A stretch of DNA of 64,000 bases. Origin: Candidatus Poribacteria bacterium. Lineage in GTDB: Bacteria; Poribacteria; WGA-4E; PCPOR2b. The stretch spans positions 4,747 through 68,746 of the forward strand of contig JAJEAL010000117.1 in the NCBI GenBank assembly GCA_022822785.1, written 5' to 3'. Below, in pieces: positions 54,479 through 63,652 of this stretch; the stretch's first letter is position 1, and each line of letters begins with the position of its first letter. The notes beneath the pieces are model-generated. The model was given only the letters and a program-made list of their open reading frames with translations. It searched no databases and was not told the origin of the DNA. Both the position numbers and the translations under genes were made by a program.

Positions 54479-55189
54479 TTACAACGCTTCCCGCCACACC
54501 GCTCGCTCGTCCTTATCGAAGTTCCACAGCTTGCGCCCAGAGACAACTTTCTTAAAATTGCGGATAGCGGTCTGTGAATTGCCATCTGTGGAAGGAAGAT
54601 GCTGAGAGAGCGTGGATTCGAGGAAGGTGAGGTCTTCTTCGGTCGGTTCTTCAATTATGGCATCGTTGCCGAGTTCAGCGATATTACCACCGACAAAACA
54701 AACCGCTTCATACATCGAATCGGCGAACGCTTCACCGGTATCTCCGCAGACGATGATTGTCCCCCGCTGCGCCATGAAACCCGCCATATAACCGCAGTTG
54801 CCGCCGACGATAATCAGGCCACCTTTCATCGAAACGCCCAACCGCGCAGCCGCATCGCTGCGAATAACAACTGTCCCACCTCGGATTGAAGCTGCTGCGC
54901 CGTTGCCCGCATTCCCTTTGACAATAACAGTACCACCCATCATGGACTCCGCCAATCCCCAACCCGCGCTCCCTTTGATCCCGACGGTGGGACCGTCAAC
55001 CATCCCTGCACAGTAGTAGCCAACACTCCCGTTGAAGGTCAACTTCACCGGCTGTAGGATCGCCACGCCGAGATTGTGCCGTGCGCCAGGATTTCTCAGC
55101 CGGATGTCAGTCTTACCGTCCGCGATGAGGCGTTTGATTTCCGTGTTGATGTCGCGGGTGGTTTTACCGTCACAGATTATGTCTGCCAT
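54479..55189 (-). CDS. glxC: GXGXG-motif protein (N-methylglutamate synthase subunit B, MgsB/GlxC)
   Basis: NPGARHNLGV, GSVGYYCAGM, repeated GxAG units, DSMYE, SGRKLWNF. Confidence 0.9.
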   Translation of the reverse strand: MADIICDGKTTRDINTEIKRLIADGKTDIRLRNPGARHNLGVAILQPVKLTFNGSVGYYCAGMVDGPTVGIKGSAGWGLAESMMGGTVIVKGNAGNGAAASIRGGTVVIRSDAAARLGVSMKGGLIIVGGNCGYMAGFMAQRGTIIVCGDTGEAFADSMYEAVCFVGGNIAELGNDAIIEEPTEEDLTFLESTLSQHLPSTDGNSQTAIRNFKKVVSGRKLWNFDKDERAVWREAL

Positions 55190-56085
55190 ACACTCACATC
55201 CTTTGCTTGTGCTTCGCGCACCTCAGAGCCGTCCCCGAAGGCAGCCCGGATCGCGATCTCTTCAGTTGCGACAGCGACAAAATCATCTGTTTCGGTAAAG
55301 AGTAGCGGTTTGAAGGCGAAGGGATCTTTGGCAAATCCAATATAATCCGTTGTTGCTGCGAGATAACTGAAGGAACCGTCTAAATCGGTAAGCGACGCAT
55401 CTAACGCTTCTTTGAACCCCAGTCCTTGGGACAATTGATCTGCGAGGTAAACACCGATGACTTCGGAGTCGTTTTCCGTGTAGAATCTGACACCGCGTTG
55501 TTCGTAGATGCAGCGTAATTTGTGGTAGTTTGTGATGTGTCCGTTGTGGACAATGGCGAGGTCAGGATAGTTGTGCGCCCAGAAAGGTTGCGAGTGACTC
55601 AGATCGACACGGCTCTCTGTCGAAAGGCGGGTATGTCCCAAGCCGTGTGTGCCTCGGAATGTCGAGACGCTGTGGGTTTCATCGAGGTTCTGGGGTGTGC
55701 CGACCTGCTTGACAATTTCGAGTTCGCGTCCCATGCTAACAACTTCGATGTCTTCATCTAAGGACTCAATGAATTGTGTTAATGGTATTGCCTCTCCTCG
55801 CAGATCGATGACGAGCCGTAAATACTCAGCAGTTGTTTTCACTTCGTGCACGGAGCCGAATGCCTTGACCCCCTCTGCGATCGAAGTGCCCCTCTCAGCT
55901 GCGCCATCAAGTTCCCCCAATTTTATCTGCAGCGTGAACGCGCCATTTTCTGGAGGATGATAGAGTGCCACACCTGCCGAATCCGGTCCCCGCACTCCCA
56001 GTGCCGTGAGCATTGTGAGAACGGTCTTGCCCACAGGCGCGTTGCTATTTTGTGTTTTGTTTAAAAAACCAACGATACCACACAC
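55177..56085 (-). CDS. glxB: Class II glutamine amidotransferase (N-methylglutamate synthase subunit A, MgsA/GlxB)
   Basis: MCGIVG, RGPDSAG, GHTRLSTES, VHNGHITN; RBS aaggag. Confidence 0.9.
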   Translation of the reverse strand: MCGIVGFLNKTQNSNAPVGKTVLTMLTALGVRGPDSAGVALYHPPENGAFTLQIKLGELDGAAERGTSIAEGVKAFGSVHEVKTTAEYLRLVIDLRGEAIPLTQFIESLDEDIEVVSMGRELEIVKQVGTPQNLDETHSVSTFRGTHGLGHTRLSTESRVDLSHSQPFWAHNYPDLAIVHNGHITNYHKLRCIYEQRGVRFYTENDSEVIGVYLADQLSQGLGFKEALDASLTDLDGSFSYLAATTDYIGFAKDPFAFKPLLFTETDDFVAVATEEIAIRAAFGDGSEVREAQAKDVSVWQT

Positions 56086-56137
56086 CCTTAATTTCTCCTT
56101 AGTTGTGGTTCAGGCTATCACGTTCAAATGTGAACGG

Positions 56138-57073
56138 TCACAATTTATCAAGTTCCTGTCTTCTAATCGTGCTATTGATAACCGCGAAATATTCGTGTGG
56201 ACTTGGGTCATGGTCTTGATAAAACATAACCGCTGTTGGGAAATCTTGATTCAAAAGGTATGCCACATTTATCTGACGCACGTTCAGGTCGTACTTTGCC
56301 GCGAGGGCGGTCGCCTTTTCCCGAATCGCAAAATTTTCATCGGTATACCAGCGGTTCAATCGGCGATCTTCCGGCACGGAATCTCGGTTAAGCTCTCTTG
56401 GAATGAAGAATGATTGGTTGAAATCGGAACCCCACGCGAGGACTGGCAGCTGCTTCTGTGTGATCAGTTCCTTCATTGAGGCGTCAAAGGGGGTGTAACC
56501 CTCCCATACCCCCGACGTAGGCGTTGCAAGCGATAGCTCCGTCGTATTAACAAAAGAGAACCCACTGAGTTCCTTATTTTTTGCGTAATCCTGAGCTGCT
56601 TGAATCCTCGCAGGCGACCAATTGAATGGACCGTAGGCAGAAATCCGACCTTTCGCCTTCTCGACCTCTAGCACATCAATGATTTCGGCTGCTGGAATAC
56701 CCTCATTATCTCCTCCGAGCACCACAAGGTCGAGATAATCGATTTCCAGAAGGTTAAGATTCTCTTCGATGTCGTTGGAGACCGATTTTGGGGAAAAACG
56801 GCTCTCTTCCAACACTGAGGTGACCTCATCATGTCCGTGGCAGATTTGAAAAAAGAGAACGAGGTCATCTCTGATACCAAGACGTTTCATCCAGGAGGCG
56901 ACATGCTTGCGGGTCTGTGTCTCGCCTCCTTCGCCGTGCATATAGAAGCAATTACCGCCCAATTCCACAAACTCATCGAAATCTTTATCATCATGCGCTT
57001 TGCTTACACAATGCGGACCAATAATCAGGGGAGAAATTAAGCGTCGACAACCCTGAATTGGGATTGGTTTCAT
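56138..57073 (-). CDS. Divergent aldo/keto reductase family protein
   Basis: IEENLNLLEIDYLDL, GRISAYGPFNWS, QINVAYLLNQDFPT; catalytic residues appear degenerate. Confidence 0.75.
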   Translation of the reverse strand: MKPIPIQGCRRLISPLIIGPHCVSKAHDDKDFDEFVELGGNCFYMHGEGGETQTRKHVASWMKRLGIRDDLVLFFQICHGHDEVTSVLEESRFSPKSVSNDIEENLNLLEIDYLDLVVLGGDNEGIPAAEIIDVLEVEKAKGRISAYGPFNWSPARIQAAQDYAKNKELSGFSFVNTTELSLATPTSGVWEGYTPFDASMKELITQKQLPVLAWGSDFNQSFFIPRELNRDSVPEDRRLNRWYTDENFAIREKATALAAKYDLNVRQINVAYLLNQDFPTAVMFYQDHDPSPHEYFAVINSTIRRQELDKL

Positions 57074-57150
57074 CGCGTTTCTCCAACTTGCAACCATTTG
57101 TGGCGTATCTTATCACACTATCAGCGTCCTGTCAAACGTCGTAAAGACAT

Positions 57151-58344
57151 CTATTTGTCCCGCAAATCTTTGACGTCCACAGCCAATCCTGAAAACTTGT
57201 TCTTTTCAAGAAGGATTTTGGCGGTCTTTTCGCCGATCTGCACACCAATATGTTCGCCACCTTCTCGCGATTCGGCAATCTGATTTCCCCGAATCATAAT
57301 TGATTGGGTCTCACCCTGAATGTCAACGCCGATTCCATCTTTGTCCGATCCGCTGTTCGTAATCCGGTTGTTCTCCACTATGTTCCGATGCGGGCTGCGC
57401 CCTTCGTTTGGTTCGTTGCGGAAGGTAATGCCGACCTCTCCGCTGTCCTCGATTTGGTTGAGTCGGATAATATTGTCGGTGTCTCGATGCCCAATGGAGA
57501 TGCCATACTGATGGTTGTTGAGAATTTGGTTATTCTCTGCGATCCCGTGTTTCACGCCCCAGCAGAAGAAAAGCCCCAACCGATTTCCTGCAAGGTAATT
57601 ATCCTGCATGATCGGACGTTGGGAACCGGAGCCCGGATGCAACCCCAAATCAGCGTTGTTCAGGCTTCGGCAATTCGTCACAGTTACGTCGTGGCAAATC
57701 TGCCATGAGATGCCGTCGCCGTTATAGTTTCGCGCTTCGACGTTATCAATTGTTATCCGCTCACAGTCCTGCATGAAAATGCAGCCGGCATAATTCCCAT
57801 CGAGGTGTCCATTGTTAGGTTTATTGCCATCGAGGCCGAGATCTCGGATCTCAACGTCGCAGATATGTTCGCCGCTCAGGATCGGAAACAGGGTCGAGAT
57901 CTGTGCGTCATGGTCTGCCCAGAAGTTCTTTTCAAGCGATTTATCAAGCCAGAGACGGTTTCCTTCTTTTGCGATAATCGTGCGCTTGATGACATTCGAT
58001 CCACCGTGATGTGGGGTCTTTGCTCTGAGGCAAATCCCGTACCCTACCTCAAAGCCGTTGCTATTGGTGAGGGTCACGTCTGAATCGTACCAATCTGAAT
58101 CGAGGGCAAGCGGTGTGCTCACAGAAGGGTTTTTAATCAGCACCGTTTCATCGCCGCTCCCTTCGATCCGGATGTTACTTCGCAGATAGATCGCGTTGTT
58201 GAGATGATAGACACCGGGCAGGAGTTTCAGTGTACCCCCGCCGAGTGCGGCAAGATAATCAATGCCCGCTTGGATAGCACGATCATCGCTGCCGTTAATC
58301 TGTCCTTCATCTCTACCTACCGTCATTGATAACGAATTCTGCAT
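57151..58344 (-). CDS. Right-handed parallel beta-helix (pectate-lyase-like) protein
   Basis: DRAIQAGID..GGGTLKLLPGVY; repeated N.I.NN...GI coils; RBS aaggag before ATG 58344. Confidence 0.85.
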   Translation of the reverse strand: MQNSLSMTVGRDEGQINGSDDRAIQAGIDYLAALGGGTLKLLPGVYHLNNAIYLRSNIRIEGSGDETVLIKNPSVSTPLALDSDWYDSDVTLTNSNGFEVGYGICLRAKTPHHGGSNVIKRTIIAKEGNRLWLDKSLEKNFWADHDAQISTLFPILSGEHICDVEIRDLGLDGNKPNNGHLDGNYAGCIFMQDCERITIDNVEARNYNGDGISWQICHDVTVTNCRSLNNADLGLHPGSGSQRPIMQDNYLAGNRLGLFFCWGVKHGIAENNQILNNHQYGISIGHRDTDNIIRLNQIEDSGEVGITFRNEPNEGRSPHRNIVENNRITNSGSDKDGIGVDIQGETQSIMIRGNQIAESREGGEHIGVQIGEKTAKILLEKNKFSGLAVDVKDLRDK

Positions 58345-58410
58345 ACAAGACTCCTTTCGCCTCTGCCGACTTGTACGAATCATATCTTTTTTTCATTCTA
58401 AGGCAATCCG

Positions 58411-59367
58411 TCATTTCTCCTGCATTGATTGTTCGGCGGACAAACTCACCCGTATAGCTTCGAGGGCGGTGGCTGCGTCTCTATCTGCTGCGCTTGTCTC
58501 CTGAGTCTGGATTTCCTGTATCCACCGTTCCTGAAGCGAAATGTGTGGGGCCTCAACCGGGGGAATTTCCTCTACCCCTGCCCCGGTTGAACAGCGCCAC
58601 CTGCCACCACTATCGCTGATTGTGCCACCTGTCAGTACATAGCGGGCGTGCTGTTCGGATTCGTGGATTTCCACTCCTCCTGCCCAGACCCAACTCCCTA
58701 CCCCGCCGTTTCTGAACTCGACATTGACGGTATTGACAAATCGGTTATAATTGCCCTGATCGGTTAATCCTTCGTAGACTGCAGAACCTTCGACTGACCT
58801 GACACCTCCGAAGATATCGACAATGGGATAGATGTGGTAGACGAAAAAGTGTGCTGGTGGACCAGAAATGGGCAGATTAAACAAAATCTCCGGACGAACG
58901 CCGCGCCCCGGTGTCAGGCGCAGAAATGTGGTCAACAGTAGATCTCCGAGTTCTTCTGCTTTCTGTTTAATTGCTCGGTGTGAATTGGACACGGTTTCGG
59001 AGTGGTTGATCCGTAGAACACGTTGATTCCTTTGTGTGGCTTCAACTACGGCTTCACCCGCGTCAATTGACCGTGCCAGCGGATATTCCATAAAGACGTG
59101 TTTATCACAACGGAGCGCCGCGAGCGCGATTTCGGCGTGGGTGTCGTTGTGGGTGCAGATAACGACGCCATCCAGATTATCGCGCTGGACAAGCGTGTAC
59201 CAATCGGGGATAAACTCTGCGCCATGTTTTTCAGCAAGCGTGTTGCCTGTCTCAGTGTTTCTTGAAGCGATTGCTACAACCTCGACGGTTTCCATTTCAG
59301 AGAATCTCTCTGCATGGCGTGTTCCAGTACCACCAGATCCTATAATACCAATTCTTATTTTTGACAT
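58411..59367 (-). CDS. Gfo/Idh/MocA family oxidoreductase
   Basis: RIGIIGSGGTG, VVICTHNDTH, HVFMEYPLA. Confidence 0.88.
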   Translation of the reverse strand: MSKIRIGIIGSGGTGTRHAERFSEMETVEVVAIASRNTETGNTLAEKHGAEFIPDWYTLVQRDNLDGVVICTHNDTHAEIALAALRCDKHVFMEYPLARSIDAGEAVVEATQRNQRVLRINHSETVSNSHRAIKQKAEELGDLLLTTFLRLTPGRGVRPEILFNLPISGPPAHFFVYHIYPIVDIFGGVRSVEGSAVYEGLTDQGNYNRFVNTVNVEFRNGGVGSWVWAGGVEIHESEQHARYVLTGGTISDSGGRWRCSTGAGVEEIPPVEAPHISLQERWIQEIQTQETSAADRDAATALEAIRVSLSAEQSMQEK

Positions 59368-59633
59368 GTTCCTGACCTAACATATTGTGTGATGTATAAC
59401 ACCTGCATCTTATCACATTTCTACCCATTCACGCCACCCAAAATCCGAAAACCTAAATCAGGATTCGATGAAAAATCTAACGCAAGTTGCTTTGAATCCC
59501 GATCTTATCGGGGGCGCTATGACGCCAAGACATAAAGTTATTTTTCTTGGCGACTTTGTACCTTCGTGTTTTTGCGTTTTATTTGATCTGATTCTGAAAG
59601 TTCTATCATTCTGAGTATCTTTATTCAGAAAAT

Positions 59634-59661
59634 GAACTTTTATCTCTCCTGCGGTGTCATT
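59634..59661 (+). promoter_or_regulatory. Putative ECF-sigma-dependent (autoregulatory) promoter
   Basis: GAACTT (59634-59639), 16-nt spacer, GTCATT (59656-59661), ending 17 nt before the ECF sigma start; fits the generic ECF -35 AAC / -10 GTC-TC consensus. Confidence 0.6.
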
Positions 59662-59678
59662 CACAGTGAAAGTCTTTT

Positions 59679-60293
59679 ATGATGGAACAGTCAGACCAAA
59701 CCCTCATTTGCAAGATTGTGAAGCGCGATGCTGCTGCCTTTGAGATGCTTTTTGCCCGACATCGTGCGTCCGTTCGCCAGCATATCCTTAGCATCGTGCG
59801 GACTGAAAGTGCCGCTGAGGATCTGGTTCAAGAGGTGTTTTTGCGTGTCTGGACGCGCGCTGAACAGTGGAATGGTCAAGGCGAGTTCCAGGGTTGGCTT
59901 TTCCGCATCGCAACGAACCTCGCCCTCAATCATTTGCGCACCGTGCGGCGCCGGCGACAGGAACCCCTTGAACCACCGCCTGACGAATTCGACGATGAGA
60001 ATGAACGGCCGGCAGATCCAGATTGGATGATTGATACTTCGTCGCACGGTCCTGACGTGATAGTGGAGCAAACCGAGCGGTCTCAGCTGCTCTGGCAGCT
60101 TATTGATGGGCTGCCTCAAGAGAAACGAGAGGTGCTTCACCTCATATATGAGAAAGAAATGGCACTTCGAGAAGCTGCCATAGAGCTTGGCATTCCAGAA
60201 GGCACCGTGAAGTCGCGTTTACACTACTCCATAAGACATCTCGCCCGCGAATGGAAGGAAATCGCAAGCGATTGGGAAGAAGAGAAAGAGTGA
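59679..60293 (+). CDS. ECF (sigma-70 group 4) RNA polymerase sigma factor
   Basis: Region 2 AEDLVQEVFLRVW...WLFRIATNLALNHLR; region 4 LPQEKREVL...EAAIELGIPEGTVKSRLHY. Confidence 0.95.
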   Translation: MMEQSDQTLICKIVKRDAAAFEMLFARHRASVRQHILSIVRTESAAEDLVQEVFLRVWTRAEQWNGQGEFQGWLFRIATNLALNHLRTVRRRRQEPLEPPPDEFDDENERPADPDWMIDTSSHGPDVIVEQTERSQLLWQLIDGLPQEKREVLHLIYEKEMALREAAIELGIPEGTVKSRLHYSIRHLAREWKEIASDWEEEKE

Positions 60294-60318: not shown

Positions 60319-60484
60319 AAGACTTACGCAAATTTAGCACACAAGGGGTAGATTTTTGATTTTTAACCCCTTAAATCCCCCAACTCCCCTGACAAGGGGG
60401 GAAGATAAGAGGGATCTTCTTCCTTGTCTTTCCCCTCTTATCAGAGGGGTTCAGGGGGACTTATGAACGCGCTGCGTCTGTCCT
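60319..60484. mobile_element. Degenerate MITE (AGGACTTACGCA-type termini) containing nested long palindromes
   Basis: aagacttacgca ... tgcgtctgtcct; internal taaatccccc...gggggactta enclosing an imperfect ~30-bp inverted repeat. Confidence 0.65.
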
Positions 60485-60532: not shown

Positions 60533-63500
60533 ATGTCACACAACGTTACTGCATTTTGGCATAAGGAATCCTTTGAAGGATTGATGAAAGAACGGTTACC
60601 AGAACTTCTCGCTGACCGGATGCCGCTCGCCGGTTATCATTTTGAGTCAACCGATACGTACACCTGTCGAGTCAGAGTTGTAATAGCGTCAACCGGGGGC
60701 TATATTGAGGTCGAATACACTGACATTCCGCAACCTGATACAGACGGTGTGTTCATGCTCAACGGTGAATCGTATATTGTCGTGCCGACCGCTTCGACTG
60801 TGAAACTGAAACAAGCGAAGATCGAATGTGTAGGCGATCAACTGTACGACTACTTCAAAGCACGTATCAGGGAAGCACCGCCAGATCTGGCATGGAATAC
60901 GTCGCTAGTCCACTTGTGGCTTCCGATTGATAGATGGGTGCGTGAATTTTTTAGCGATACATACACCGCTCAGAAACTCGCTCAGACCAACTGGCTTGAC
61001 AAGCATTCACATCTGCGTAGGGTACGGATTTCACAAGGGAATCAGGTGTTTAGCCCTGGACACTTTGGGCGGACTTGTCCATTTGAGACGCCAGAGGGAC
61101 CCAACGTTGGCAAGATTCTAACGATTGCGAGGGGTGCAGAGATTCGTGATGGAAAATTGGTTATCGTGGATGATACTCCTGAAGCGACGCTTGGTTTATC
61201 TGCAGCGCTGATCCCTTTTCTCGAACACAACGACCCATCGCGAATACTCATGGGTGCAAACATGATGCGCCAGTGGTTATCCCCGTCTACTCCAGAGACT
61301 GCTCCGGTTAGGTGTTCCAACGAAATGTCAAGATCGGCTGCCTCTCCAGAACCTGCACTTGTCCAGACAGGTTACGAGCCCGATGTCCCCGACTTTTGGT
61401 GTGGGCGTAATCTGTTGACCGCTTTTATCTCTTGGGGCGGGGATACTTTTGAGGATGGCATCGTGATTAGCGAGTCGTGTGCCGCACGTCTAAATTTTCC
61501 CTATGCCGTTGAACCGGGCGATAAGATTAGTAACCGTCACGGAACGAAAGGGGTCATTTCACGTATCATCCCTGACGATGAGATGCCTCATCTCGCCGAT
61601 GGTACGCCGGCAGAGCTTGTTTTCAGTTTTGGTGCTTTGCATGGACGGATGAACTTTGGTCAGATCCGTGAAGCGGTCATGAGCCGCATTGCGCGGGCGG
61701 AGGGGGAAGTCGCTATTGTGCCTCCATTTCAAGCACCTAGTGCCGATCAACTTCGTGAGCGACTCCAAAAGGTAGGATTGCCTGAAGATGGGATGGAAAT
61801 CCTCACCTTTGGGTCCAACGGTAAGGAACTGGATCGGCCAAGCACGGTTGGTTGGGTGTATTGGGGGAAGACGGTTCACATCGCGCTCGATAAGCTCAAG
61901 GTTTCCGAGCCTATCGTTCATGACGAACCTATATACCATCAGGGACTTGGCGAACTGGAATACTATACACTCCGTAATGCTTCAGCATTTGAGACTTTGC
62001 GGGAACATTTCAACACCCGCGCTTCGACGCGGGTAGATGCGGGGACACTTCCCGATCGCGTTGCAGCAGGAACAGTTGAGCAGGCGGGACCACCGACGCC
62101 GATGTTTGCCAAAATCAGGGGACGACTGTCGGCAGCAGGCATCCACGCCAACTTTGATGGTGACCAGCTGACTTTCCAATTTGCGCGTCCGACTGGGGAT
62201 ACACTTCAGCTTGTCCAGCCAGTTGCCCATCCGTGGCTACATGCTCAAACCATTGATGAAGTTGGTATATGTGAAGGCATTTCCGAGTATCGTGCACTTG
62301 CCGATGTCAATACTAGAGCAGAGCGGATGTTTGCAAATGATGCACCGGAAAGTCTAACCCTTCAAGTCCTGAAGCAACTCCAAACACGTCTTGCGGAATA
62401 CTTCGACGCGCTTCTAAGTCCCGCGGACATGCGCTTTACGGCACAAACGCTTTTCAGCGGACGCAGCGTCATTGTACCAGATGCAGAGTTACGCGCCGAT
62501 CAGGTTGGCATTCCGGAGCAGATGGCATGGGCGCTTTTCGGGCCTCAGGTTACAAAAGAACTCGGTGATGCCAAAGCAGTGCGAGGACGCAGCCAAAGTG
62601 CAACACAGGCACTTGATGAACTGATGGCGCGTTCATGGGTGATTGTACATCGAGCTCCGGCGTTTACGTCTACCACCCTTCTTGCATTCCATCCGGTGCG
62701 CCAACCGGACCGCACCATCCGTGTTCACCCCTTTGTTTGTGAGTTGATGAGTGCTGACTTTGATGGGGACCAAGCGGCGGTTTTTCTGCCCATCACAGCG
62801 GGGGGGCAACGGGAAGCCGGTGAGCAGCTGTCTATCGCCGGACATCTCAAACGAGATCCAAATGTGTGCACAGCGTTAGCCCCAGGGCATGACGCGATTT
62901 GGGGGTTGGCAAGTTTGAGTCTTACCCCTGAAGGATGTGACGAACTTTCAGAAGTTGTCGGGATGGAGATTGCTATCCCTGAGGGTTTGGTCACACGGCG
63001 CTCATTGGCAGATACGCTAAAAACACTCCTCAAACGCGAAGGAATTGATCGCACCATTGAAGTTGCTGAACGGCTAATGCAGCGTGGACTCGAAATTGTA
63101 AAGGAATCGGGAGCCTCCATGAGTCCGTTCCTCAGTAGGAGCGATGGTAGTCCTTCCATTCCTACGGACTCCGAGGATGTAACAGCATGGAACGCCTACG
63201 CGGAAGAACTTATGGAGTGGATTGCTGCTTACGAAGACTTTGCTGATAACAACTTGGGATCGCACATCCTCGCGGTCAAAAGCCGCGCCTTTACGAGTAG
63301 ACTTTATCGACTCGCTTGTGTTGTTGGGGCGCGAGGAGCGGTTTCAGATATTCGAGGCGGAGATATTGTGATTCGTAACGGGTATTGTGATGGTTTAACG
63401 TCTGATGAACTCTACACGCTATCTGTCGGCTCACGGGAAGGGCTTGTTCGCCTCAACTTGGAAGTGCAACGCGTTGCGTGGGAGTTCCGAGATAGCAGCC

Positions 63501-63652
63501 AATCGAAAGGGTTTACCGTTCTGTCTCGTGCGATGCGAGCCAGACATCCCGGCATCGTTTTCGCCCGTGCCGCAGCCTGCGGTGAAGTCGATCCGCTTAC
63601 AGATATTGATAGCCGGCTTTTCGTTGGGCTGCCTGTAGCAAGAACCGAGTGA
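60533..63652 (+). CDS. Single-chain miniaturised RNA polymerase beta-beta' (RpoB-RpoC) fusion protein
   Basis: Collinear RpoB motifs (GRTCPFETPEGPNVG; LIPFLEHNDPSRILMGANMMRQ; FEDGIVISE; GDKISNRHGTKGVIS; GRMNFGQ; VGWVYWGKTVH; QGLGELE), then RpoC motifs (PVAHPW; clamp helices; FSGRSVIV; HRAP; SADFDGDQ; GSREGL; C-terminal VFARAAACGEVDPL); RBS aggagg. Confidence 0.9.
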   Translation: MSHNVTAFWHKESFEGLMKERLPELLADRMPLAGYHFESTDTYTCRVRVVIASTGGYIEVEYTDIPQPDTDGVFMLNGESYIVVPTASTVKLKQAKIECVGDQLYDYFKARIREAPPDLAWNTSLVHLWLPIDRWVREFFSDTYTAQKLAQTNWLDKHSHLRRVRISQGNQVFSPGHFGRTCPFETPEGPNVGKILTIARGAEIRDGKLVIVDDTPEATLGLSAALIPFLEHNDPSRILMGANMMRQWLSPSTPETAPVRCSNEMSRSAASPEPALVQTGYEPDVPDFWCGRNLLTAFISWGGDTFEDGIVISESCAARLNFPYAVEPGDKISNRHGTKGVISRIIPDDEMPHLADGTPAELVFSFGALHGRMNFGQIREAVMSRIARAEGEVAIVPPFQAPSADQLRERLQKVGLPEDGMEILTFGSNGKELDRPSTVGWVYWGKTVHIALDKLKVSEPIVHDEPIYHQGLGELEYYTLRNASAFETLREHFNTRASTRVDAGTLPDRVAAGTVEQAGPPTPMFAKIRGRLSAAGIHANFDGDQLTFQFARPTGDTLQLVQPVAHPWLHAQTIDEVGICEGISEYRALADVNTRAERMFANDAPESLTLQVLKQLQTRLAEYFDALLSPADMRFTAQTLFSGRSVIVPDAELRADQVGIPEQMAWALFGPQVTKELGDAKAVRGRSQSATQALDELMARSWVIVHRAPAFTSTTLLAFHPVRQPDRTIRVHPFVCELMSADFDGDQAAVFLPITAGGQREAGEQLSIAGHLKRDPNVCTALAPGHDAIWGLASLSLTPEGCDELSEVVGMEIAIPEGLVTRRSLADTLKTLLKREGIDRTIEVAERLMQRGLEIVKESGASMSPFLSRSDGSPSIPTDSEDVTAWNAYAEELMEWIAAYEDFADNNLGSHILAVKSRAFTSRLYRLACVVGARGAVSDIRGGDIVIRNGYCDGLTSDELYTLSVGSREGLVRLNLEVQRVAWEFRDSSQSKGFTVLSRAMRARHPGIVFARAAACGEVDPLTDIDSRLFVGLPVARTE

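Follow-up and report, generated by a model that had tools for sequence, protein, structure and literature searches.

Which surfaces does a sigma factor need on a polymerase that has lost one of its two usual landing sites? Sigma classically works as a subunit of a large five-subunit core enzyme, with its region 2 placed on the clamp helices and its region 4 on the flap. The question is raised by a 64,000-nucleotide (nt) stretch of DNA from a Candidatus Poribacteria bacterium (assembly GCA_022822785.1, contig JAJEAL010000117.1, positions 4,747 to 68,746 of the forward strand), referred to here as the window, in which the gene for an extracytoplasmic function (ECF) sigma factor (P0002, 204 aa; 59679-60293) is followed by a gene for a fused mini beta-beta' RNA polymerase (P0001, 1039 aa; 60533-63652), with both genes, and all features of them given below, on the forward strand. 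A first-pass annotation of this DNA had suggested that the flapless polymerase may still bind sigma region 2 through a surface possibly co-evolved with the neighbouring ECF sigma, but cannot position region 4 in the usual way. The locus proved to represent a widespread, uncharacterised two-gene module, larger than that annotation had seen. With a probability of roughly 0.4, we interpret it as a self-contained, self-promoted two-protein module, in which the ECF sigma and the reduced single-chain polymerase act together as a minimal holoenzyme. This interpretation draws on the near-obligate pairing of the genes, their coupled junctions, a conserved promoter that is unique within the genome, and the joint loss of both partners.

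The first-pass annotation had made its idea hinge on the two genes staying together across genomes, and they do so to a striking degree. Among the genome loci, an orthologue of the sigma gene (E 1e-29 to 1e-121) stands upstream of the polymerase gene, on the same strand, in 35 of 36; as just 52 nt are available upstream at the 36th, the arrangement holds in 35 of 35 informative loci. The same is true of 64 of the 68 metagenome loci with at least 650 nt upstream, hence the sigma gene precedes the polymerase gene in 99 of 103 informative loci overall. The distance from the sigma stop codon to the polymerase match is zero or negative in 30 of these 99 loci and no more than 30 nt in 66, with a median of 14 nt, and such overlapping or abutting genes suggest translational coupling and 1:1 production of the two proteins. 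No third conserved neighbour was found at the module loci. Of 66 loci, 32 have a following gene that runs in the same direction and 34 one that runs the other way, meaning the unit consists of two genes. The neighbouring genes include no evident alpha or omega partner, and the module contains no anti-sigma factor or other control element, the gene at position +1 showing polymerase domains only in Pfam.

The four remaining loci (L095, L114, L116 and L139) have no sigma gene within the 710-2500 nt available upstream. One of them, the metagenome locus L114, carries an IS200-like transposase ORF (open reading frame) at approximately 1390-1821, upstream of the polymerase gene, with no sigma gene within 2.5 kb; it may be a rearranged locus. 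A different departure is seen at three loci from Poribacteria and Latescibacterota (L018, L027 and L030), where one extra ORF on the same strand (801, 598 and 381 aa, respectively) lies between the sigma and polymerase genes, the 598-aa product resembling a membrane transporter by eye.

The sigma factor falls within the ECF (group IV) sigma-70 family, having the two domains Sigma70_r2 (residues 24-91) and Sigma70_r4 (residues 142-188) in Pfam; its TIGR02937 score is 109.9 against a cutoff of 42.9, and its nearest solved relatives are sigmas of the AlgU, RpoE and SigW type. Across the paired sigmas (n=102), W58, W64, G68, P114, W116, D119 and W192 are conserved (100, 95, 97, 96, 90, 87 and 90, respectively), whereas the genome's 14 other sigma-like ORFs lack these residues. 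The paired sigmas also have a short acidic C-terminal extension, and a linker motif of the form P114-x-W116-M-x-D119.

Both genes also disappear together. Five relatives from the same genus or family that lack an intact polymerase were checked: in G051 the sigma gene has become a pseudogene interrupted by two stops, in G084 just a fragment of it is left, and in G090, G101 and G062 none was found. The sigma and polymerase genes have therefore been lost jointly. What remains in individual genomes illustrates the stages of this decay: G051 retains the promoter and the sigma pseudogene with the polymerase gone; G084 has the sigma fragment alone; G062 has the promoter and the last 153 polymerase residues; G093 has the polymerase in two pieces with a TGA; and G122 has a family-type promoter site with no polymerase match.

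The promoter of the window's module, read from the sequence upstream of the sigma gene (59633-59658), consists of TGAAC (59633-59637), a 15-nt spacer, and GGTGTC (59653-59658). Of 34 genome loci, 30 have a match to the pattern GAAC-N15/16-G(T/C)GTC no more than 150 nt from the sigma start, where shuffled sequences give 0.05 loci on average and never more than 2; matches also occur in 45 of 6020 other 150-nt windows of these loci, a count that still includes the true sites. The pattern is likewise present in 54 of 56 metagenome loci, while the three genome loci missed even by a looser pattern are one-base variants. Moreover, conservation exceeds the requirements of the pattern at the T that opens TGAAC and at the CGG preceding TGTC. 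When a position weight matrix (PWM) built from 19 non-redundant sites was scanned across the 5.6-Mb genome, the module site scored best, at 40.3 bits, with the next sites (23.5, 21.5, 18.0, 17.2 and 14.8 bits) all inside ORFs. In all 16 relatives in which both site and module were located, one family-type site adjoins the module, and the remaining matches appear to be chance hits. Hence the recognisable regulon of this sigma is its own operon, which has the only strong site of this kind in the genome.

In the genome G121 (L250, G121:C35:74000-84000, reverse strand), 690 nt separate the sigma and polymerase genes, and a second TGAAC-N16-GGTGTC stands directly before the polymerase gene; none of the 29 other loci with gaps above 60 nt has a second promoter between the two genes. 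The purine-rich block AGTGAAAG (59665-59672), 6 nt before the sigma start codon, corresponds to a conserved consensus, RGTAGAGGGC, approximately 7 nt after the -10 element. This was considered as a special initiation element, an idea that was dropped, as from its position the block is probably a ribosome-binding site on a very short leader. In one sponge metatranscriptome library, contigs are exact matches to 59696-59915, within the sigma gene, and to four parts of the polymerase gene, at a depth of 2-3; this is a weak hint of expression, as carry-over of DNA is possible and contigs do not reveal where transcripts start or end.

The polymerase ORF is the last large one of the window, and is open across all 1039 aa. 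Pfam places Rpb2_3 (Rpb2 domain 3, residues 148-204), Rpb2_6 (Rpb2 domain 6, residues 326-457) and Rpb1_2 (Rpb1 domain 2, residues 697-764) on this single chain, with E-values of 4.8e-40 and 3.6e-18 that indicate clear homology to beta and beta', and among solved structures the closest matches are to beta and beta' chains of bacteria (E 2e-43 and 9e-21). The protein misses the NCBIfam cutoffs for both RpoB (TIGR02013, 172.8 against 801.15) and RpoC (TIGR02386, 89.1 against 963.5). The RpoB and RpoC of the same genome served as the references for comparisons by phmmer and hhalign. Residues 89-522 of the mini-polymerase align with RpoB residues 563-1428 (hhalign, E 2.2e-55), marking residues 1-522 (60533-62098) as the beta-like half, and the alignment of 78 family members matches RpoC with 99.9% probability (E 2.5e-32), but only between residues 580-976 and RpoC residues 284-811. 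The canonical rpoB (1449 aa) and rpoC (1436 aa) are on another contig of this genome, which is 96% complete, and the fused gene is present in a single copy. Hence the fused protein is an extra, reduced polymerase, consisting of one 1039-aa chain in place of the approximately 2900 aa that canonical beta and beta' spread over two.

The reduction has spared the catalytic centre, with the motifs of both double-psi barrels (GDK..RHG.KG in beta and DFDGD in beta') kept across the family. In the beta motif GDKISNRHG (residues 329-337; 61517-61543), G329, D330, R335 and G337 are invariant in 78 members, and K331, N334 and H336 are conserved in at least 90%. In the beta' motif DFDGDQ (residues 742-747; 62756-62773), D744, G745, D746 and Q747 are invariant in 19 members, with D742, D744, G745 and D746 conserved in at least 90% of the 78. 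Judged by its motifs, the mini-polymerase is thus catalytically intact. Elsewhere in the beta-like half, residues ~143-166 (~60960-61030) have diverged, reading TAQKLAQTNWLDKHSHLRRVR where the genome's own RpoB has LSQFMQQANPLDELTHKRRLS; we take this segment to be the counterpart of the rifampicin cluster I region, or rifampicin pocket, of RpoB.

The first-pass annotation had noted about 14 residues in place of an RpoB flap region of about 250 aa. Exactly 14 residues (315-328; 61475-61516) separate FEDGIVISE (residues 306-314; 61448-61474) from GDKISNRHG, with the positions it gave being right here and accurate to within one codon throughout, and this linker has the same length in 19 of 19 aligned family members. 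By phmmer, residues 284-319 correspond to residues 915-950 of the genome's own RpoB, and residues 326-523 to residues 1201-1407, while hhalign opens a single gap at residues 323/324, facing RpoB ~952-1198. Therefore approximately 245 residues of flap region are missing relative to this organism's own RpoB, so the earlier size estimate is valid beyond E. coli. The absence of the beta' N-terminal Zn-binding domain, also proposed at that stage, was borne out at the junction between the beta C-terminus and the beta' N-terminus (residues 523-579; 62099-62269): residues 1-283 of the genome's own RpoC have no aligned counterpart in the mini-polymerase by hhalign, and the junction has no cysteine, the next being C580, which is not conserved.

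Further parts are gone on either side of these sites. Residues 1-88 face RpoB 1-562 in the hhalign alignment, leaving most of the beta lobes missing, and a 22-residue gap follows the clamp coiled coil where RpoC has its rudder. After the bridge-helix region (residues 930-976; 63320-63460), which aligns with residues 763-811 of the genome's own RpoC, only 63 residues remain, against 625 in RpoC, of which residues 812-1436 have no aligned counterpart, meaning there is no room for a trigger loop. By these alignments, the mini-polymerase has lost the flap, the lobes, the Zn-binding domain, the rudder and the trigger loop. The bridge-helix segment is itself among the family's least conserved parts (0.406, against 0.540 overall), unlike the situation in canonical polymerases, and this weak conservation may go with the missing trigger loop.

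The clamp coiled coil, by contrast with these losses, is still recognisable, as had been claimed. Residues 580-628 align with residues 284-332 of the genome's own RpoC by hhalign, and the coiled coil proper (residues 586-628, from Y586; 62288-62416) has 11 of 43 residues identical to RpoC 290-332. Canonical polar positions of the first helix are kept (N593 in 63 of 78 members, R595 in 55, with lysine in nine more, and R598 in 52), as are the A-P turn and the hydrophobic core that match canonical RpoC (P605 in 74, L608 in 72 and L616 in 69).

These elements could be combined into a minimal holoenzyme as follows. The TGAAC-N15-GGTGTC promoter of the sigma gene would drive both genes, and the sigma and mini-polymerase would form a 1:1 complex, with sigma region 2 docking on the retained coiled coil. 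Initiation would then occur at the module's own promoter, with region 4, in the absence of a flap, held by the DNA and by elements specific to these sigmas, namely the P114-x-W116-M-x-D119 linker, W192 and the acidic tail. The fullest form of this idea, which we advance more tentatively than the holoenzyme itself, is a two-protein, sigma-programmable machine comprising a single-chain polymerase of approximately 115 kDa that does without flap, Zn-binding domain, trigger loop, alpha and omega, a 23-kDa ECF sigma seated on the coiled coil, a flap-independent hold on region 4, and a classical -35/-10 promoter; no smaller sigma-dependent polymerase of cellular type would be known, and it would be an accessory one in many bacterial phyla.

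Several observations weigh against a holoenzyme of this kind, and many of them favour a division of labour in which the sigma acts only with the host core, and the mini-polymerase is the sole output of a one-operon regulon, working without any sigma. We regard this as a serious explanation, and as somewhat less probable than the holoenzyme. The mini-polymerase might then carry out unspecific or structure-primed RNA synthesis, form R-loops or primers, or transcribe while the host enzyme is blocked, with the coiled coil kept for the structure of the clamp or for NusG. The clamp coiled coil is a docking site for NusG as well, so it may have been retained for reasons unrelated to sigma. Its sequence is also not under unusual constraint, with a conservation of 0.463 against a protein average of 0.540, and a window rank of 767 of 997. 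Positions that are arginine and glutamate in RpoC are conserved small residues in this family (A592 in 58 and A612 in 56 of 78 members); indeed E. coli R275, E295 and A302, which we take to be critical for sigma-70 binding, correspond to A/V592, A/V612 and R/A619. The sigma is similarly conventional on its side of the putative interface, as its region 2.2 motif (D48, Q51, E52 and F54) is that of an ordinary ECF sigma, and together with its closest solved relatives being ordinary RpoE and AlgU sigmas, this implies it should bind the host core. Nor did covariation reveal an interface: across 102 sigma-polymerase pairs (effective number 81), mutual information with average product correction gave noise, with the top pairs in variable or poorly aligned columns, the coiled-coil windows ranking 7, 23 and 24 of 199 against sigma region 2, and the pair of sigma E43 and polymerase E606 ranking 12 of 180,872. 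A search for sigma-polymerase fusion proteins found none at E <= 1e-20, which is weak evidence.

The promoter poses a further difficulty. The earlier suggestion about region 4 follows from the missing flap: this docking site is absent family-wide, and without it region 4 cannot sit as it normally does. Yet the promoter itself keeps the classical -35/-10 spacing. In ordinary RNA polymerase, breaking the contact between sigma region 4 and the flap abolishes the use of -10/-35 promoters, not of extended -10 promoters, according to the available portion of PMC7403470. The canonical ECF -35/-10 geometry therefore needs a flap in an ordinary holoenzyme, which the mini-enzyme lacks, and the sigma may act on the host core instead. 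Hence the canonical spacing leaves two readings, with the sigma either working on the host core, or held on the mini-enzyme by other means, perhaps through its linker and tail. The restricted regulon is also awkward for a minimal holoenzyme, since an enzyme reading only this promoter would transcribe only itself. The PWM gave no second promoter site outside ORFs in the genome, no alternative -35/-10 spacer between 0 and 40 nt was enriched there, and the -10 element alone was not enriched upstream of genes (8 of 1231, a ratio of 0.0065 against 0.0107 for permuted motifs). A regulon confined to its own operon is common for an ECF sigma with effector neighbours, and the separate promoter copy before the polymerase gene in G121 equally suits a polymerase that functions apart from its sigma. 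There is also a precedent for sigma-free activity, in that the prophage polymerase YonO elongates on assembled scaffolds in vitro without any added factor, its need for a promoter factor being left open in the available text of PMC5467207.

Other features fit a sigma acting solely on the host core less well. Firstly, the same orthologous sigma is attached to the polymerase across at least seven phyla, often with overlapping codons, which is tighter than a mere regulator would need. Secondly, the module lacks an anti-sigma or other control element. Thirdly, the paired sigmas have linker and C-terminal residues of their own, which an ordinary host-core sigma would not need. Fourthly, the first helix of the coiled coil keeps its canonical polar face.

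An unlikely alternative, compatible with either a minimal holoenzyme or a sigma serving the host core, is that the mini-polymerase is the keeper of the sigma, binding region 2 through its coiled coil in the manner of an anti-sigma, and releasing it upon engaging a template, thereby restraining a positive feedback loop. The polymerase gene occupies the +1 position that is usual for the anti-sigma in ECF operons, and no anti-sigma domain is present; the likely translational coupling suggests 1:1 production; and an autoregulated promoter without a brake might be expected to run away. However, this idea is purely inferential, and the conserved catalytic motifs mean the protein is no mere decoy. 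It is very improbable that the polymerase gene is a functionless, decaying relic, or an artefact of assembly or annotation, for although it is dispensable (23 of 121 sampled genomes in the phylum have it, and 9 of 13 in the genus), and broken or remnant in G093 and G062, there are 78 intact members across many phyla with invariant catalytic residues, and the partner gene and promoter are conserved too.

A minimal holoenzyme therefore remains our preferred interpretation. A polymerase that keeps the site for region 2 without that for region 4, yet is co-inherited with a sigma and its promoter, is a natural test of which contacts are needed for promoter-specific initiation. Should the pair form a holoenzyme, it would provide a compact, orthogonal system for transcription, and a new reference point for the limit to which a cellular polymerase can be reduced. 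If instead the sigma works through the host enzyme only, the module would still contain an uncharacterised second polymerase, switched on by a dedicated one-operon sigma. The pair hints that this sponge-symbiont genome carries a second, very small machine for transcription in addition to its ordinary RNA polymerase.

The module shares elements with several known systems. Like a canonical core enzyme with an ECF sigma, it has homologous beta and beta' parts with the same catalytic motifs, clamp coiled coil and bridge helix, and an ordinary two-domain sigma with an autoregulated promoter of ECF type; unlike the canonical core, the mini-polymerase is an accessory copy, absent from most sampled genomes of the phylum. 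ECF sigma/anti-sigma operons similarly have an autoregulated promoter, the sigma gene first, and a coupled, co-inherited +1 gene, but in this module that gene encodes a polymerase rather than an anti-sigma. YonO, from the Bacillus subtilis prophage SPbeta, is likewise a single chain of approximately 100 kDa with both barrels and no detectable trigger loop, as well as no flap, lid, rudder or lobe; it has almost no sequence similarity to cellular polymerases, a few active-site residues apart, and is encoded by a prophage (PMC5467207, in the part available). Compared with that description, the present family clearly descends from bacterial beta and beta', is chromosomal, and is tied to a sigma.

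The closest parallel in layout is K2ORF6p of yeast cytoplasmic linear plasmids, described in the accessible parts of PMC2919709 and PMC6211774, which is approximately 980-1040 aa long, runs from beta into beta' with about half of each subunit deleted, and is missing the lid and rudder. Going by the same descriptions, K2ORF6p differs in being eukaryotic and plasmid-borne, with poxvirus-like affinities and promoters, and in lacking nearly the whole clamp, including the coiled coil, and needing a second small subunit and no sigma. In the portion of PMC6211774 available, a fusion of this type is stated to be unknown in any other polymerase. The present bacterial family is a second, independent reduced beta-beta' fusion beside K2ORF6p. 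Full-length fusions of the two subunits also exist, including that of Helicobacter. Those of Wolinella succinogenes and Candidatus Adlerbacteria also place both subunits on one polypeptide (PMC11515920, as far as available). Such full-length fusions are of full size, with all domains, and serve as the cell's only polymerase, whereas here the fusion is a reduced extra copy. The main text and part of the supplement of the ECF reclassification (PMC7826278) mention neither a neighbour resembling a polymerase nor a group that has this promoter. Full-text literature searches returned no description of a sigma-linked mini-polymerase family, nor does one appear in the available portions of PMC2919709, PMC5467207, PMC6211774, PMC11515920, PMC7826278 and PMC8999054.

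The family extends well beyond the Poribacteria. A word-indexed search recovered full-length relatives of approximately 1000-1100 aa, at 50-90% identity and labelled hypothetical, from Poribacteria, Hydrogenedentes, Chloroflexi, Ktedonobacteraceae and Anaerolineae, and an exhaustive search of representatives found many more full-length members, down to approximately 38% identity. The 78 aligned members include intact full-length ORFs at 37-70% identity from many phyla. Eighty genome loci were examined, drawn from approximately 3000 matching stretches, a figure that includes canonical rpoB-rpoC loci, and approximately 1400 metagenome stretches matched. Family members account for 36 of the 80 (L001-L036), from Poribacteria, Chloroflexota, Armatimonadota, Planctomycetota, Latescibacterota, Gemmatimonadota and Myxococcales, the other loci being those of ordinary rpoB and rpoC. 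A quickly built tree grouped Poribacteria in one supported clade and Latescibacterota in another, with Armatimonadota and Phycisphaerae scattered.

Within the window's own phylum, the copies are concentrated in particular families (14 of 18, 8 of 9 and 0 of 82 genomes), and one copy is broken and one a remnant; being found in so few of the sampled genomes, the gene is accessory and dispensable. No family member was present in phage or plasmid collections (0 records covering 80% of the query), nor among the viral contigs of IMG/VR, which yielded only split beta'/beta viral polymerases and 0 sigma hits, and PADLOC gave no match for the polymerase. Those viral loci (L170-L249) have gene pairs in the order beta' then beta, of approximately 900 and 1000 aa, with no sigma homologue. 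Two clusters in the ESM Atlas, with 135 and 73 members, contain proteins of about this size under the names hypothetical or 'RNA polymerase family protein', and the atlas has other single-chain clusters combining Rpb2_6 and Rpb1_2, of 1164-1787 aa, whose taxa are unrecorded.

The surroundings of the module in this genome have their own features. The spacer between the sigma and polymerase genes is 239 nt in the window and bears dispersed short repeats (60329-60475) with 54 matches in the genome itself, whereas the genes abut or overlap in other phyla. These repeats are seen at high depth and with loose ends in both DNA and RNA contigs, and the spacer includes a 10-nt inverted repeat (60404-60413 and 60433-60442). 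The repeats are inserted between the two genes here, and are not part of the module in other phyla. Upstream, four genes on the reverse strand (55177-59367), including one that by eye encodes a Gfo/Idh/MocA-like oxidoreductase (58411-59367), are syntenic with the loci L001, L002 and L009, and the module therefore resides in a stable chromosomal context within the genus.

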